From positions 1 through 64,000 of IMG/VR virus record IMGVR_UViG_3300020048_000015: a DNA stretch of 64,000 bases, one strand, 5' to 3'. Shown piece after piece: positions 4,389-48,933 of this stretch (its first letter is position 1; each line of letters starts with the position of its first letter). Position numbers and translations under genes: made by a program. Under the pieces are notes generated by a model, which ran no database searches, was not told where the DNA came from, and saw only the letters and a program-made list of their open reading frames with translations. This stretch comes from a virus.

Positions 4389-5030
4389 ATGATAAATATA
4401 AAAGAAATTTGTAGAAAATATGGTATAACAAATTATACAATTAATCTGGATGGTTCAATTGATGTAGTTGGTAATGTTTATTTAATACACGATGGATTAA
4501 CAGAAATACCACTAAAATTTAATAAAGTTTCTGGTGATTTTTCTTGTTCCAGAAATAAATTAACAAATCTAGAAGGCTGTCCTAATTATGTGGGTGATAC
4601 ATTTTATTGTGGTTATAATAACTTAACATCATTATATGGTTGTCCGAATTATGTAGGAGATGCATTTTATTGTGGTTATAATAACTTAACCTGTTTAATA
4701 GGCAGTCCTAATTATGTGGGTGATACATTTTATTGTGGTTATAATAACTTAACATCATTATATGGTTGTCCGAATTATGTAGGAGATGCATTTTATTGTG
4801 GTTATAATAACTTAACCTGTTTAATAGGCAGTCCTAATTATGTGGGTGATACATTTTATTGTGGTTATAATAACTTAACATCATTATATGGTTGTCCATC
4901 TCATATAGGTGGGAAATTTTATTGCTATGGTAATCCACTACCAGAAGAAATAAGGGATAATCCTATGGCAGAAATAAAGAGATTGAATAGAGAATCAAAA
5001 CTAAATCTACTATTAAATGAATATTTATAA
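4389..5030 (+). CDS. LRR-like protein, type A (6 repeats)
   Basis: Same architecture; contains exact 126-bp internal duplications. Confidence 0.9.
   Translation: MINIKEICRKYGITNYTINLDGSIDVVGNVYLIHDGLTEIPLKFNKVSGDFSCSRNKLTNLEGCPNYVGDTFYCGYNNLTSLYGCPNYVGDAFYCGYNNLTCLIGSPNYVGDTFYCGYNNLTSLYGCPNYVGDAFYCGYNNLTCLIGSPNYVGDTFYCGYNNLTSLYGCPSHIGGKFYCYGNPLPEEIRDNPMAEIKRLNRESKLNLLLNEYL
4581..4897 (+). repeat. Exact tandem repeat, 126-bp unit x2.5
   Basis: Units start at 4581, 4707 and 4833. Confidence 0.9.
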
Positions 5031-5469
5031 AATTTGTGAATATTATGGTATACAAAACTATACAATTAATCCGGATGGTTCCATTGATGTAAATGGTAAT
5101 GTTTGGTTGTTTAATAAAAATTTAACCAAACTACCACTTAAATTTAATAAGGTTTCCTGTAATTTTAGTTGTTCCGATAATAAAAATAACTTAACATCTT
5201 TAGATGGATGTCCGAATTATGTAGGTGGTAATTTTTATTGTTCTAATAATAAATTAACATCATTATATGGTTGTCCTAATTATGTTGGTGGTAATTTTTA
5301 TTGTCATAATAATGAAATAACCAGTTTAGATGGTTGTCCAAAAGAGATTGGTGGTAATTTTCATTGCTATAGTAATCCACTACCACAAGAAATAATGGAT
5401 AATCCAAAAGCAGAATTATTAAGATTAAACAGAGAAAATAAATTAAATATACTATTAGATGAATATTAA
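5017..5469 (+). CDS. LRR-like protein, type A (3 repeats)
   Basis: Same architecture; ends RENKLNILLDEY. Confidence 0.9.
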   Translation: MNIYKICEYYGIQNYTINPDGSIDVNGNVWLFNKNLTKLPLKFNKVSCNFSCSDNKNNLTSLDGCPNYVGGNFYCSNNKLTSLYGCPNYVGGNFYCHNNEITSLDGCPKEIGGNFHCYSNPLPQEIMDNPKAELLRLNRENKLNILLDEY

Positions 5470-5842
5470 AGAAATTTGTAAACTCTATAATATAGAAAAC
5501 TATAAAATTAATCCAGATGAATCTATTGATGTTGATGGTAATGTTATTTTATTTAATAGAAGATTAACCAAACTACCATTAAAATTTAATAAAGTAACTG
5601 GTGATTTTTCTTGCACTTCTAATCTATTAACAAATCTAGAAGGATGTCCGAATTATGTAGGTGGTAATTTTGGTTGTGTAGCTAATAATATAACCAGTTT
5701 AGAAGGATGTCCGAATTATGTAGGTGGTAATTTTAATTGTCATCTTAATCAATTACCAGAAGAAATAAGGAATAATCCTAAAGCAGAAATTTTAAGATTA
5801 CAAAGAGAATCAAAATTAAATATACTATTAGATGAATATTAA
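5459..5842 (+). CDS. LRR-like protein, type A (2 repeats)
   Basis: Same architecture; ends RESKLNILLDEY. Confidence 0.9.
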   Translation: MNIKEICKLYNIENYKINPDESIDVDGNVILFNRRLTKLPLKFNKVTGDFSCTSNLLTNLEGCPNYVGGNFGCVANNITSLEGCPNYVGGNFNCHLNQLPEEIRNNPKAEILRLQRESKLNILLDEY

Positions 5843-6235
5843 AGTAATTTGTAAACTCTATAATATAGTAAACTATACTATAAATCATGATGGATCCATT
5901 GATGTAGATGGTGATGTTAATTTATATAATAAAAGATTAACGAAAATTCCAATTAAATTTAATAAAGTAACTGGTTATTTTACTTGCTGTGATAATGAAA
6001 TAACATCATTAGAAGGATGTCCTAATTATGTTGGTGATAATTTTTCTTGTGTAGCTAATAAATTAGTTGTTATAGTAACAATCTAACCAGTTTAGAAGGT
6101 AGTCCAAATTATATAGGTGGATATTTTTTTTGTAGTGGAAATCCATTACCTAAAGAAATAATTGATAATCCTAAAGCAGAGTTATTAAGATTACAAAGAG
6201 AATCAAAACTAAATAGTTTATTAGATGAATATTGA
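5832..6235 (+). pseudogene. Frameshifted LRR-like gene, type A
   Basis: Frame breaks near 6066 after ANKL; another frame continues CYSNNLTSLEGSP...RESKLNSLLDEY* to 6235. Confidence 0.8.
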
Positions 6236-6587
6236 TGAAATTTGTAATGAATATGGTATAACAAATTATACAATTAATCCAGATGGATCTATTGATGTAA
6301 ATGGTAATGTTACTTTAAGATCAAATAGTTTAGAAAAAATAACCTATAATTCAATAGTTATACTAATAGGGGAAAATGATGATGGACTATCTATTGACCT
6401 AAATGAAATATCTAAAATAGATACAATCTATAAAGAAAACTTAAATGTAGTAGACTCAACTCTCTATCACTCCGGTTATAAAAATGGTCAAATTGATGCA
6501 GATAATAAAAAATACTTATGGAAAAAAGTAACCCAGGAAAATGGTGAAATAATTTATCTAAACAAATTTAAAACTTTATATGAATAA
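6225..6587 (+). CDS. Chimera: LRR-family head fused to an unrelated C-terminal domain
   Basis: First ~39 aa are the LRR head; the tail DSTLYHSGYKNGQID resembles 33421..33720. Confidence 0.7.
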   Translation: MNIDEICNEYGITNYTINPDGSIDVNGNVTLRSNSLEKITYNSIVILIGENDDGLSIDLNEISKIDTIYKENLNVVDSTLYHSGYKNGQIDADNKKYLWKKVTQENGEIIYLNKFKTLYE

Positions 6588-44525: not shown

Positions 44526-44834
44526 TTTATCCCTTAGATTAATTAGTCTAAAAAGCTTATCCAATTTATATTCAGAATATTCTACAAAATTAAATTTCAA
44601 ATATTTAATAAAATTAAAATCTTCAACACGCTTATTACAAACATCAATATGAGTAGAAATAAAATTATATCTAATCATATCCTTTTCAATATCTAAATTA
44701 GATAAAATATTATTAAATTTAATTATTTTATTTTTTAATTCACCCAAAATAGAATCAACATCATGGCTTTTATTAACCATGATGTTGATTTGTGTATCAA
44801 TATGTTTTAATGATATACTATACTTACTTTTCAT
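44499..44834 (-). CDS. Hypothetical protein
   Basis: ORF coupled to the topoisomerase A gene. Confidence 0.55.
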   Translation of the reverse strand: MKSKYSISLKHIDTQINIMVNKSHDVDSILGELKNKIIKFNNILSNLDIEKDMIRYNFISTHIDVCNKRVEDFNFIKYLKFNFVEYSEYKLDKLFRLINLRDKLYPFDKIC

Positions 44835-46180
44835 TTCATTTTTTTCTTTAAATCACTTAAATCATCAATATACATTTTCTTTGGTTCAATCTTAGAAAAC
44901 TCTTCTATTTCAGTCTTCTTATCTTTATAATCACCTTTTAACTTTTCAAAAAGCTCTTTTGTTAATGACCATAATGGCATTCTTAATAAATAATCAAAGC
45001 TATCATCAACCTTTTCTAAACCCAAATTTTCTATATCTTTTATTATATCTTCTTTAGATCTATTTTTAATTTCCAATTTTCCATCCAATATAGCTTTTAT
45101 GAATTTGCCTTTGTTTGATAGAATTTTTAATTCCCTATTTAGCTTATCTAAAATGAACTCTTTTCGCTTAACATAAAAAGTTAATCTAAAGTTCACAAAA
45201 TATTCAATTATTTCTTTACTATTTTCAAATATTTTTAATTCACCAAATTCATCAAGCGTTGTAAAAATTTCAGTTGATGTTTCTTCCAACTTCAATAACT
45301 TAATTAATTTTTCTTCATCTAATTGCGCCAAAGTTTCCCTATTAAATTTGATTAAATAATTTACAGAATCTTTACAATTATCATCATAAGAAACAATTAC
45401 CTTATCATCAACCAATCCATCCAAAACAACTTCATACTTTTCATATGTCATTGATGGTGGCAATTCATCAATTCTAGCAGTAGATGTATTTACAATTTTT
45501 ACTATACCTCTTATAAACCATCTTTTATGATTATCTTTATCTTGTGTGTATGTACCATTGAAAAAATTACTATGTGGTGATACATCAACTATTTTTTTAC
45601 CTTTCAATAATTGTTCACAAGCATTTATAATATCAATAGGATTTCTATTTAAAATATTAGAAGCAAATCCAACTGCAATACCAGATGAACCATTAATAAG
45701 AATAGTCGGTATTATAGGCAGAAAATATTCAGGTTCAATACCAACACCTTCTTCTTGCTTATAATCCAATAATTCAAAATCTTTATAAAGCAACCTAAAG
45801 TTATTATTCAATTTAGTTCCAATGTAGCGAGGCGCTCCTGCCGTGGTACACCTGATCGATCCGAATTGACCATGTTCTTCTAATAATGACATATTATTTT
45901 TAAATGATTGCGCCATATTAATAATAGCAGATTCTAATGAACTTGAACCATGATGATAATAAGCTTGTGATGCTACACTACCAGCTAATTGAAAAACCTT
46001 TAATGGCTTTTCATTTCCAGTTCGCCATATATCATTACATATGAAAATTATTTTTCTTTGAACTGGTTTAAACCCATCAATACAAGATCCAATCGCTCTA
46101 CTTTCAATAGTATAAAGTGCGAAGTCTTTGTATTCCTGTGATAAGAAATCACTAATTGTCTTTTCATTAATTTTATCCAT
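44831..46180 (-). CDS. Type IIA DNA topoisomerase, A (T4 gp52/GyrA-like) subunit
   Basis: DGFKPVQRKI, YHHGSSSL, catalytic PRY, NGSSGIAVGF. Confidence 0.95.
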   Translation of the reverse strand: MDKINEKTISDFLSQEYKDFALYTIESRAIGSCIDGFKPVQRKIIFICNDIWRTGNEKPLKVFQLAGSVASQAYYHHGSSSLESAIINMAQSFKNNMSLLEEHGQFGSIRCTTAGAPRYIGTKLNNNFRLLYKDFELLDYKQEEGVGIEPEYFLPIIPTILINGSSGIAVGFASNILNRNPIDIINACEQLLKGKKIVDVSPHSNFFNGTYTQDKDNHKRWFIRGIVKIVNTSTARIDELPPSMTYEKYEVVLDGLVDDKVIVSYDDNCKDSVNYLIKFNRETLAQLDEEKLIKLLKLEETSTEIFTTLDEFGELKIFENSKEIIEYFVNFRLTFYVKRKEFILDKLNRELKILSNKGKFIKAILDGKLEIKNRSKEDIIKDIENLGLEKVDDSFDYLLRMPLWSLTKELFEKLKGDYKDKKTEIEEFSKIEPKKMYIDDLSDLKKKMK

Positions 46181-46279
46181 ATATTTATTTCTATATTAAG
46201 TATTAATTTTGTTTATTTTTTTTCAAAACATAAGATGCCATAATTCTATATATAGAAAAAATATATCTAATTTTATAAA

Positions 46280-48028
46280 ATGAAAAAAATAGAAGATAAA
46301 TATAAAGTATTAAGTCACATTGATCATATATTACTTAGACCACAAACATACTTAGGATCAAATAAACCACACACATCTATCAAATGGGTTTGTGTTGATG
46401 AAAAGATGCTTAAAAAGGAAATAACATACACACCATCATTTCTTAAAATATTTGATGAGATCATAACGAATTGTTGCGATGAAAATAAAAGAAATCCTGA
46501 TACATTAAATATAATAAAAGTAAATGTAGATAAAGATAATGGAATAATATCAATATATGATAATGGTGGCATTCCTATATTATTACACAAAGAACATAAT
46601 AAATATGTCCCAGAAGTTATTTTTGGAACATTGATGTCAGGATCAAACTATGATGATAATGATGAAAGAACAGGCGCTGGTGTAAATGGTTATGGTTCTA
46701 AATTAACTAATGTATTTTCAAAAGAGTTTGTTGTATCTTCTTGTGATGGCAAAAATAGCTTCTATCAAGTTTTTTCAAATAATATGAGGGATAGAAATGA
46801 ACCTAAAATTAAAAAGAATAAAACAAATCATACTGAAATAAAATACAAACCGGACTTTGAAAAATTTGGATTGGATGATATAAACGAAGAACATTATTTA
46901 TTAATATACAAAAGAGTTATTGATATTGCTGGTTGTAATCCATCAATTAAAGTTTTCTTCAATAATATAGAAATCAAAATTAAATCCTTTGAAGACTATG
47001 TTAAATATTATGAAACAGAATATTATATTGAATCAAATCAAGATAAGAGTTGGAATATAGCTATATCACATTCTAACGAAGGATTTCAACAAGTTAGTTT
47101 TGTAAACACAACTGAAACATATGATGGGGGAACCCATGTTGATTATATTTTAAATCAAATACTAACACAACTAAGAGAATTTTTTCAAAAGAAGCATAAA
47201 GTTGATGTAAAGCCATCTGAATTAAAAAACCATATTGCTATATACTTAGATGTAACTGTTGTAAATCCAATGTTTTCTTCACAAACTAAAGAAAAATTAA
47301 TAACAGAAGTTAAGGATTTTGGACACATTCATCAAATATCTGAAAAATTAATAAAATGGATATTAAAATCTGAAATAGTTAATTCAATATTAGACTGGAT
47401 TCAAAGAAAAAAAGAAGCTGATGAAAATAAATTAACAAGAGAATTAAATAAAAACATATCTAAAATTAAAGTAGATAAATTGATTGATGCAAAAGGAAAG
47501 ACAAGGAATCTATGTTCCTTAGCAATATTTGAAGGGGATTGTCTATCAGAAGATACTTTTATTAGAATTTTAAGGGATGGTGAATTTTTTGATATCCATA
47601 TAAAAGATACCAAAGTTGGTGATTTGGTCATAACACATAATAATAGTTTTTCTGATATTTATGCTATTTCAAAAAAAATTAAAGAAAAAGCAACAATAAA
47701 GCTAAAAGGACTTGATGATATTATATGTAGCCACGAACATAAATGGTTTGTATATGATTACATTAAAAATCAATTTTATTTCGAAGAAACTAAAAATCTA
47801 AAAAAAGATAAACATAAATTAGTTAAAAACTATTTAGCATTTACTGATGATTTACATAGGATAAATAAAATTGATAATAACATCATAGATATATTTATTG
47901 ATACCATAGAAGCTAATCCAGAACATAAATTTGCAGTATATGATAATTCAGATAATAAATTTAAAATGATAGAAACAAAAAACTTAAATAAAGACATACA
48001 TTTTTTAGTAAACACCTTCAAATTATAA
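46280..48028 (+). CDS. Type IIA topoisomerase B subunit, N-part (GHKL ATPase) fused to N-intein
   Basis: HILLRPQTYLGS, FDEIITN, GAGVNGYG; FEGD followed by intein CLSEDT at 47540. Confidence 0.93.
   Translation: MKKIEDKYKVLSHIDHILLRPQTYLGSNKPHTSIKWVCVDEKMLKKEITYTPSFLKIFDEIITNCCDENKRNPDTLNIIKVNVDKDNGIISIYDNGGIPILLHKEHNKYVPEVIFGTLMSGSNYDDNDERTGAGVNGYGSKLTNVFSKEFVVSSCDGKNSFYQVFSNNMRDRNEPKIKKNKTNHTEIKYKPDFEKFGLDDINEEHYLLIYKRVIDIAGCNPSIKVFFNNIEIKIKSFEDYVKYYETEYYIESNQDKSWNIAISHSNEGFQQVSFVNTTETYDGGTHVDYILNQILTQLREFFQKKHKVDVKPSELKNHIAIYLDVTVVNPMFSSQTKEKLITEVKDFGHIHQISEKLIKWILKSEIVNSILDWIQRKKEADENKLTRELNKNISKIKVDKLIDAKGKTRNLCSLAIFEGDCLSEDTFIRILRDGEFFDIHIKDTKVGDLVITHNNSFSDIYAISKKIKEKATIKLKGLDDIICSHEHKWFVYDYIKNQFYFEETKNLKKDKHKLVKNYLAFTDDLHRINKIDNNIIDIFIDTIEANPEHKFAVYDNSDNKFKMIETKNLNKDIHFLVNTFKL
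47540..48025 (+). mobile_element. Split intein, N-fragment (162 aa)
   Basis: Block A CLSEDTFI...VGD.V; block B CSHEHKW. Confidence 0.88.
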
Positions 48029-48029
48029 C

Positions 48030-48227
48030 ATCACCTTCGAAACAGACTTTTGGGTTAATCCAAACAATAAAGAAATTACTGCAAGTGAAGCATATCTTAA
48101 ACAAGAATTAAAATTAAATACAGCTAAAGAAAAAGGTTTTTTTATTTTGGAAATTTGGTCAGATGAAGATAACAAAGTAGATAAAGTATTAAATTTTATA
48201 AAAAATAATATAAATAAAAATGGTTGA
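48030..48227 (+). pseudogene. Remnant of a Vsr/DUF559-like homing endonuclease between the intein halves
   Basis: No start codon; FWVNP...TASEAYLKQELKLNTAKEKGFFILEIWSDE...KVLNFI*. Confidence 0.65.
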
Positions 48228-48351
48228 AAGTTTTTTAGAACTAATAGAAATTAATGATATCTTATTAGAAGATGAATATTTAAATATGGTTGATATATCA
48301 GTAAATGTAGAACAAAGCTTTTTATTATCAAATGGATTAATTTCCCACAAT
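48220..48351 (+). mobile_element. Split intein, C-fragment (44 aa)
   Basis: MVDISV..EQSFLLSNGLISHN followed by Ser+1. Confidence 0.9.
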
Positions 48352-48933
48352 TCAGCAATTTCATCATATCGGAAATATAGAAATAATGAAACACAAGGTG
48401 CTTTTGCATTAAGAGGAAAATTTATAAATGCATCAGAAGCAACTACACAGAAATTAATGGGAAACAATGAAGTTATTAATTTAATGGCAGCAATTGGATT
48501 AAAATTAGGACAGAAAGAATTATCAAATTTAAGATATGGTAAAATAATATTTTATTGTGATAGTGATCATGATGGTAGTTCAATTGTAGCACTCTTAATA
48601 AATTTTATGTATAAATATTGGCCTGAACTTTTTGATAAAGAAATGATTTTTAAAGCTGAAACACCAATTGTAGTGGTTAAAAATATTAAAAACAAAAAGA
48701 AAACATCATTCTATAAACAAGATGATTATAATAAATGGCTAGTTCAAATAAAACCAAAAGAATGGGAAATAGAATATAAAAAGGGATTGGCAGCATTACT
48801 TGATGATGAATATGCAGAGATAATAAATAATCCAATATTAACAAAAATAAAATCAGATGAAACATCTAAAACCCAACTAAATGTTTGGTTTGGAAAAGAA
48901 TCTGAATTGAGAAAAAATGAAATGTTGAAATGA
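48220..48933 (+). CDS. C-intein fused to topoisomerase B C-part (TOPRIM)
   Basis: After HN: SAISS...ALRGKFIN...YCDSDHDGSSI...YKKGLA. Confidence 0.93.
   Translation: MVESFLELIEINDILLEDEYLNMVDISVNVEQSFLLSNGLISHNSAISSYRKYRNNETQGAFALRGKFINASEATTQKLMGNNEVINLMAAIGLKLGQKELSNLRYGKIIFYCDSDHDGSSIVALLINFMYKYWPELFDKEMIFKAETPIVVVKNIKNKKKTSFYKQDDYNKWLVQIKPKEWEIEYKKGLAALLDDEYAEIINNPILTKIKSDETSKTQLNVWFGKESELRKNEMLK

Follow-up and report, generated by a model that had tools for sequence, protein, structure and literature searches.

The fractured genes of Dassa et al. 2009 (PMC2677866), which include those of the gp41-1, NrdJ-1 and IMPDH-1 inteins, span eight types of host enzyme, and neither topoisomerase nor gyrase appears in the text of that study. 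A phage topoisomerase that is broken in another way is known from T4, where genes 39, mobA and 60 represent a topoisomerase II large subunit (Topo2L) split by a MobA element (10.1101/2022.08.31.505936). A third point of reference is provided by the Vsr-like homing endonucleases of the EDxHD type, such as I-Bth0305I (PMC3239194; PDB 3R3P). Here we analyse positions 1-64,000 of the IMG/VR virus record IMGVR_UViG_3300020048_000015, a stretch of 64,000 nucleotides that we call the window (the whole record has 182,728 bases). Sequence comparisons and structural models make it very probable that the window carries a fractured topoisomerase II large-subunit gene of a huge uncultured phage, the two halves of which are joined at the protein level by split-intein trans-splicing.

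The gene is divided between two open reading frames (ORFs), whose parts are arranged as follows, the only feature on the opposite strand being the neighbouring gene given last.

46280..48028, + strand: ORF1, 582 aa, with a TAA stop at 48026-48028; residues 1-420 end in ...AIFEGD and residues 421-582 are the N-intein.
46280..47539, + strand: N-extein, the N-terminal part of the topoisomerase II large subunit (GHKL ATPase, transducer and the start of TOPRIM as far as ..FEGD); Pfam DNA_gyraseB, 8.6e-24.
47540..48028, + strand: N-intein CLSEDT...NTFKL, 162 aa plus TAA, with Cys1, block A CLSEDT and block B SHEH (intein residues 64-67).
47690..47821, + strand: first copy of the block-B module (intein residues ~52-95, the copy with the catalytic SxxH), from the range of the hhalign query.
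47882..48010, + strand: second copy of the block-B module (intein residues ~115-157, NPEHKF...HFLV), from the range of the hhalign template.
48029-48219, + strand: spacer between the halves, 191 nt, 23% GC, similar to the rest of the window.
48012..48227, + strand: start-less 71-codon remnant, by homology, of an endonuclease gene, taken from stop to stop in the third frame.
48220..48933, + strand: ORF2, 237 aa, with its own ATG and in a frame other than that of ORF1.
48220..48351, + strand: C-intein, 44 aa, with block F MVDISV and block G SNGLISHN, ending in LISHN.
48352..48933, + strand: C-extein, beginning with Ser+1 (SAISSYRKY...) and comprising the remainder of TOPRIM, including DSDHDG, and TOPRIM_C; Pfam Toprim, 2.4e-07, and TOPRIM_C, 4.5e-08.
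44831..46180, - strand: partner A-type (gp52-like) topoisomerase II subunit, uninterrupted and divergently oriented; Pfam DNA_topoisoIV, 4.3e-93.

An earlier interpretation of this DNA, made from its letters without database searches (the sequence-only reading), had proposed a naturally split intein within the TOPRIM EGDSA motif, and the ORF ends, intein lengths, gap and overlap with the start of ORF2 that it described all lie at these coordinates. The layout is that of the fractured genes of Dassa et al. 2009, with an ORF for each half and the two in their original order on one strand at a single locus. Between the halves, the window has only the dead 71-codon remnant, the TGA of whose frame (48225-48227) overlaps the ATG of ORF2, whereas intact endonuclease genes occupy this place in the related loci L006, L008, L009 and L010.

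The identity of the host protein is clear. Across ORF1 and ORF2 the Pfam families DNA_gyraseB, Toprim and TOPRIM_C score above their cut-offs and HATPase_c is found weakly, below its cut-off; ORF1 also gives a weak match to Intein_splicing, and ORF2 matches PHROG 543 (DNA topoisomerase II large subunit) at 1.8e-57. The N-extein is 38-69% identical to the N-terminal parts of contiguous homologues, with matches that end exactly at EGD. When the exteins are joined, EGD/SA is restored (the slash marks the intein junction), with DSDHDG following in ORF2, and the product contains the GHKL, transducer, TOPRIM and TOPRIM_C parts of a large subunit.

Evidence on the position of the intein comes from alleles that lack it. 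A search with the single ORF2 protein gave no relatives, and alignment A1 was required to retrieve a set of 80 related IMG/VR loci; in GenBank, uncultured phages of 462-642 kb come closest. Two of these, LR745206 and LR756504 (L002 and L003), have a single contiguous gene that reads GIFEGDSAAG and GIFEGDAALKG, respectively. Neither intein half is matched in 65 of the 80 loci, and in 64 of these 65 the match to the N-extein ends one base before that to the C-extein begins, with no residue gained or lost. Since the extein matches abut at EGD/SA, the intein halves add 206 residues between Asp and Ser of the TOPRIM EGDSA motif, cleanly and in frame relative to the empty alleles. The 65th, L018, has EGDSA with no intein but is broken further downstream, at a second site. 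In a distant subfamily (L001, L059, L063, L064 and L076-L078) Leu or Met precedes the intein instead of Asp, and the predicted spliced product would read EGLSA or EGMSA, compared with the near-universal EGDSA.

The residues needed for splicing are likewise retained. Cys421 (Cys1), Ser484 and His487 of block B and the NYLAF..NTF tail are invariant in 21 diverse N-halves. Cys1 directly follows the N-extein in all 15 loci that share the fractured layout (listed below), and the SHEH of block B becomes TxxH or SxxH in distant relatives, so that (S/T)xxH is found in 15 of 15. On the other side, D, F, L, N, G, S, H and N of the C-intein are invariant in eight paired relatives, and SHN/S, with Ser+1, is present in each of the 14 loci that have a C-half, the contig of L059 stopping before it. 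A nucleophile at position 1, block B, a terminal His-Asn with Ser+1, precise insertion and a Hint fold together characterise class-1 inteins, and the first four are visible here in the sequence.

The fold was addressed with an AlphaFold2 (AF2) model of the halves of a relative, L005, treated as one chain by reading through its stop codon. The model has a mean predicted local distance difference test (pLDDT) score of 90.3 and a predicted template modelling (pTM) score of 0.83, with disorder confined to the linker. Foldseek finds inteins at a probability of 1.00. With VIA-align the model superimposes on the Ssp DnaB mini-intein (1mi8) with a Z score of 18.8 and a root-mean-square deviation (rmsd) of 1.6 Å over 128 residues, and on the Prp8, Npu DnaE and gp41-1 inteins with Z scores of 18.0-18.8 (18.3 for Npu DnaE); 85 chains reach Z>=8, and the 50 entries listed are without exception inteins or other Hint-domain structures. 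The two halves of this relative are thus predicted to fold as a complete Hint domain, the canonical core of which takes up about 130-140 of the ~200 ordered residues, the remainder being extra. The anatomy of the locus, the empty alleles, the conserved residues and the modelled Hint fold of the relative's halves all bear out the proposal of a natural split intein at TOPRIM EGD/SA.

How would such a gene give rise to an enzyme? We infer that the two ORFs are co-transcribed, translated separately and joined by splicing. The first product would consist of the ATPase, transducer and EGD followed by the 162-aa N-intein, and the second of the 44-aa C-intein followed by SA and the rest of TOPRIM and TOPRIM_C. 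Association of the intein halves into one Hint domain would permit class-1 protein trans-splicing, in which an N-S acyl shift at Cys1 would be followed by acyl transfer to Ser+1 and then by cyclisation of the terminal Asn, aided by the penultimate His. Asp420 would be joined to Ser, recreating the EGDSA motif in a subunit of ~613 aa that would pair with the neighbouring A-type subunit. A free-standing Vsr-like (EDxHD-type) endonuclease gene between the halves probably created or spread the arrangement. No terminator-like site was found between the halves, and a sigma-70 promoter scan gave fewer sites than shuffled controls, which is uninformative in DNA of 25% GC. An A/T-rich AATTTTATAAA motif lies upstream of both ORF1 (46235-46279) and ORF2 (48175-48219), and L005-L009 and L062 have the same stretch before the ATG of the C-half. 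One possible role is that of a common promoter or initiation element, but the motif could also reflect no more than the coding constraint of the endonuclease C-terminus (..NFIKNNI).

Could the two halves instead simply dock non-covalently through their intein pieces, with no peptide bond formed, in the manner of the extensions of T4 gp39/gp60 or Aeh1 NrdA? There is precedent, in that T4 topoisomerase II works with separate gp39 and gp60, to which mobA brings conserved terminal extensions (10.1101/2022.08.31.505936); moreover, the extra 62-aa module of the N-intein, although conserved, should be dispensable for splicing. Docking alone, however, would not maintain the chemical residues, and sequences as little as ~30% identical still have Cys1, (S/T)xxH, the block-F Asp, the terminal His-Asn and Ser+1. 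The break also falls inside the catalytic EGDSA motif, such that about 200 unspliced residues would be left in the active site. We therefore regard docking without splicing as improbable.

The fractured layout is not peculiar to the window, and its recurrence, like the exact abutment of the extein matches in the empty alleles, goes far past what chance would produce. The gene context of the split rests on 15 IMG/VR and GenBank loci that have it in common, namely LR756500 (L001), L005-L010, L059, L062-L065 and L076-L078. In these, N-inteins of 161-169 aa are followed by a stop, C-inteins of 43-47 aa stand behind their own ATG, and the gap between the halves is 24, 204, 315 or 1098-1413 nt. Searched against 5.8 billion proteins, the N-intein matched at least 141 clusters (at 90% identity), on contigs of up to 770 kb; each of the 120 clusters listed is 52-63% identical to the 162-aa N-intein over 98-100% of its length, and 113 of them are full-length N-halves of 571-586 aa, the other seven being shorter or partial. 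The large contigs (33-770 kb) that carry N-halves also encode C-halves, in 12 clusters of 209-241 aa, 11 of which measure 237-241 aa. Mean column identity in alignment A1 is 75%, tail included. The ratio of non-synonymous to synonymous substitution rates (dN/dS) is unsuited to these comparisons, synonymous sites being saturated at 53-63% amino-acid identity; as judged from amino-acid conservation, the split is conserved and its halves are under selection. One N-half (P0093) is an NCBI 'ATP-binding protein' assigned to a metagenome-assembled genome of Candidatus Muirbacterium halophilum, on a contig of 68,887 bp that probably belongs to a phage and was grouped with bacterial contigs in binning, although it could also hint at the host.

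This recurrence bears directly on a second alternative, that the locus is a decaying pseudogene, or an artefact of assembling or sequencing what is really a contiguous intein-containing gene. The intervening endonuclease is clearly degraded, and the record is a metagenomic assembly with an estimated completeness of 84%, as might be expected if this were so. Nevertheless, the stop after ..NTFKL and the ATG-led C-half recur throughout the 15 loci and the clusters described above, with strong amino-acid conservation, and both exteins are intact and full-length relative to their homologues. The identical N-half of the window is recorded on three contigs and its C-half on four, the longest of 353,919 bp, making an error peculiar to one assembly unlikely. 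Our search found no longer contiguous protein that carries the C-intein, although this is weak evidence only. With identical halves on three to four contigs and the same split in 15 loci, the assembly error that the sequence-only reading had itself raised as a danger is unlikely, and we consider the pseudogene or artefact explanation as a whole very improbable. Least credible is that read-through or recoding of the stop codon joins the halves into a cis-splicing precursor, for although the halves of L005 are in one frame and only one TAG and eight codons apart, N-halves end with TAG in 8 of the 15 loci and TAG recoding occurs in some large phages, the N-half of the window ends with TAA, its halves are in different frames with several stops in the gap, and loci with an intact endonuclease have more than 1 kb of coding sequence in another frame between the halves.

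Trans-splicing of the two halves thus remains by far the preferred explanation, but some observations do weigh against it. The 62-aa extension of the N-intein has no characterised counterpart, and block B of the window has Ser in place of the usual Thr, albeit a conservative variant. No Shine-Dalgarno-like site was found upstream of ORF2; none is present at ORF1 either, however, so its absence is uninformative. The Hint model was built from an alignment of paired and unpaired halves with only 13 rows, and it is a model of a relative and not of the window's own chains, the N-intein of L005 being 59% and its C-intein 73% identical to those of the window.

Tandem duplication of a 43-aa block-B module accounts for the unusual length of the N-intein. 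Residues 52-95 and 115-157 align to one another with an hhalign probability of 96.8% and an E value of 2.6e-10, at 49% identity over 43 columns, and the duplicate is contained in the C-terminal extension of ~62 aa. The first copy stands at the canonical distance from Cys1 and has (S/T)xxH in every locus, whereas in the second the His is replaced in the distant relatives L001, L063 and L077; we therefore take copy 1 to be the catalytic block B. On the same sequence evidence copy 2 is probably structural rather than catalytic, an added and conserved β-module at the usual site of endonuclease insertion or splitting. A MAFFT alignment (A4) had suggested that the tail of the N-intein might be a degenerate copy of the C-intein (a 'cage'); this was rejected, the probability of profile similarity being 0.2%. 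It is conceivable, although rather doubtful, that the duplicate is a functional addition, giving an N-half that is soluble, pre-folded or auto-inhibited, or a larger surface with which to capture the C-half. In that case the family would stand as a class of natural split inteins that is structurally new, has control of assembly built in and comprises many diverged, possibly orthogonal, variants.

The gap between the halves records the fate of the endonuclease. In L006, L008, L009 and L010 it is filled by intact, free-standing ORFs of 434-439 aa, which lie at 5281-6600 in L006 and at 5297-6601 in L008. The 71-codon stub of the window matches the C-terminal ends of those of L006, L008 and L009 in tblastn (E 1e-17 to 9e-16, 52-64% identity), and the intact L006 protein, searched against the whole record of 182,728 bases, matches the stub and nothing else (residues 374-439 of 439, 52% identity, E 7.7e-16). 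An exhaustive HMMER search with the stub gave 19 matches at E <= 0.001, with a 437-aa protein at E 1.9e-10; some of these are full-length, at 422-439 aa, and about ten are short fragments of 43-113 aa. The stub has no match in Pfam and a weak one to PHROG 3339 'homing endonuclease' (E 0.0088). Alignment A2 places its beginning just past the FYDF...IIEYNGxxFHP core, with the Asp, Asn and His positions absent, and no ATG, GTG or TTG that would give at least 30 aa was found in its frame (48012..48227). Because the stub starts after the core, it lacks the catalytic residues; it has no start codon either, and is a remnant, not a functional member of the family.

The intact relatives are themselves elusive in sequence searches: no Pfam family scores above threshold, L006 giving only DUF559 at E 0.1, and a PDB sequence search with the endonuclease returned only an irrelevant weak match. 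An AF2 model of the C-terminal nuclease domain of L006 (pLDDT 88) is more informative. It superimposes on the catalytic domain of I-Bth0305I (3r3p_A) with a Z score of 9.7 and an rmsd of 2.7 Å over 93 of 97 residues, at 22% identity, and also matches 3hrl (DUF559-type, Z 9.0) and E. coli Vsr (1cw0, Z 8.8; 1vsr, Z 8.3); the Foldseek probabilities are 0.96-0.97, and the Z values are only moderately above background. On this modelled structure, the endonucleases of the intact relatives are of the 'Vsr-like' EDxHD type of Dassa 2009 and Taylor 2011. The same label is justified for the stub by its homology to these 434-439-aa proteins, whose modelled nuclease matches I-Bth0305I and Vsr, and both lines of evidence support its interpretation as the fossil of a free-standing Vsr-like (EDxHD-type) homing endonuclease gene. 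The sequence-only reading had already called the piece in the gap Vsr-like; that name holds by way of the intact relatives, but cannot be demonstrated on the 71-aa stub alone.

Arranged by size, the related loci form a series of decay, from the whole gene in L006, L008, L009 and L010 (gap 1359-1365 nt), through 93 codons in L007, with the nuclease core but no start (gap 315 nt), and the 71 codons of the window (gap 191 nt), to seven codons, NFIKENI*, in L005 (gap 24 nt). By its alignment with the intact genes, that of the window has been deleted from its 5' side, leaving the last ~66-71 codons. Every remnant keeps the 3' end, adjoining or overlapping the ATG of the C-half, and a AAATTTTATAAAA... 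stretch upstream of this ATG is common to them. The stretch and 3' end have probably been retained since they serve to initiate translation of the C-half. Other types of ORF intervene between the halves in L001 and L062-L065. That of L001 (3158-4279) has an N-terminal part of ~216 residues in common with the Vsr-type protein (38% identity, E 5e-31) and a different C-terminal domain, which looks HNH-like by eye and has no Pfam match.

Further inteins occur in the same enzyme. In L005 (4701-6460; IMGVR_UViG_3300020576_007232) one gene has two split inteins, at EGD/SA and at the TOPRIM DxD motif, the second reading LYTDAD/CLEENT... and ...ILSHN/CDGNAIS; nothing but a stop and a few codons stands between the halves of either intein, and the large subunit would accordingly be assembled from three polypeptides. 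L018 (3495-6847; IMGVR_UViG_3300033069_001351), which has no EGD/SA intein, is fractured at this second TOPRIM site (FYVDAD/C... and ...LSHN/CDGNS) and carries there an intact free-standing ORF of 358 aa (5262-6338) with a classical Vsr-like motif, EFFGDYWH. Its break is a second, independent split-intein site in the phage topoisomerase II large subunit. In L001 (LR756500.1) the adjacent A-type subunit gene also has an intein (5012-5551), after YHHGD/C. Elsewhere in the record that contains the window, at 139888-141813 and so beyond the window itself, an ORF of 641 aa carries a contiguous cis mini-intein; its Pfam matches are DNA_pol_B at residues 22-125 (a segment of a family-B DNA polymerase) and Intein_splicing at 131-275.

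What does the locus add? It brings a phage type IIA topoisomerase, split inside EGDSA, to the short list of fractured genes that depend on a split intein. As judged by the series from intact endonuclease to seven-codon scar, once a gene has been fractured its split intein evidently survives the loss of the selfish endonuclease responsible for it. Protein engineering could draw on the family for many diverged pairs, 30-75% identical, which have Ser+1 at the junction and an unusually large N-fragment. There is also a caution for annotation, since the halves are labelled 'DNA topoisomerase-2', 'ATP-binding protein' or 'hypothetical protein' with the split unmentioned.

How new is such a gene? One preprint devotes a single sentence of its available text to one sequence, MGS5, a phage Topo2L that is interrupted by intein domains around a Vsr-type endonuclease. 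MGS5 belongs to a Campylobacter-phage-like clade and also has a bypass cassette; that sentence gives no insertion site, split state or family description. On split inteins in phage topoisomerases, a literature search that did not take in the supplement of Novikova et al. turned up only this sentence, and within the same coverage it found no description of an EGD/SA split-intein family, of its prevalence, of the long N-intein or of the decay series.

The T4 system is one of the closest. There too a homing-endonuclease element divides the large subunit of a phage topoisomerase II inside TOPRIM, and the split persists although the endonuclease has often become a pseudogene or disappeared. The T4 element differs in that it has no intein; the chains remain separate, with element-encoded terminal extensions and a 50-nt translational bypass, and the break comes about 30 residues beyond EGDSA on the downstream side, where the alignment of the gp60-like PHROG 7229 starts at residue 76 of ORF2. 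T4 topoisomerase mutants are DNA-delay and not lethal, so that the 'essential enzyme' of the sequence-only reading is an assumption. As for the endonuclease, the D...N-x4-H spacing of the intact relatives is 13 and 5 residues, compared with 12 and 5 in I-Bth0305I, and both have an N-terminal DNA-binding region followed by a C-terminal nuclease; the relatives differ from I-Bth0305I in their N-terminal module, which is common to a second endonuclease type, and the copy in the window has no catalytic core.

Among other inteins, the cyanobacterial DnaE split inteins (Ssp, Npu) are similarly of class 1, with the canonical split site and a C-intein of ~36-44 aa. In DnaE, however, the halves are encoded far apart, there is no endonuclease remnant, the N-intein has 102-123 aa with no duplicated module, and the +1 residue is Cys where the window has Ser. 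Bacterial and archaeal GyrB cis-inteins, such as that of Ssp GyrB, also occupy the B-type subunit of a type IIA topoisomerase, but are contiguous and cellular and often have an internal endonuclease domain. The site of the Ssp GyrB intein is presumably also EGD/SAGG. The sequence-only reading had thought a type IIA topoisomerase unusual as a host, which holds to a lesser degree than it implied: inteins in GyrA, GyrB, Top6B and TopA are common in cells, those in GyrA and GyrB occurring in both bacteria and archaea (PMC4760082), and the T4 subunit is split by mobA.

Finally, it is the fractured genes that the locus most resembles. The gp41-1, NrdJ-1 and IMPDH-1 N-inteins are roughly 88-105 aa. 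The window shares with the loci of Dassa et al. 2009 the overlap of the endonuclease and C-half frames and the phage context, and differs from them in its host protein, in an N-intein of 162 aa with a duplicated block-B module, in an endonuclease reduced to a dead stub, and in belonging to a family found in huge (>350 kb) phages with a full series of decay. We conclude that the locus is no isolated case but belongs to a large, conserved family found in huge phages, and that it is a member of the known 'fractured gene' class, from which it stands out by the duplicated N-intein module, the TOPRIM host site, its abundance in huge phages and the graded loss of its endonuclease.

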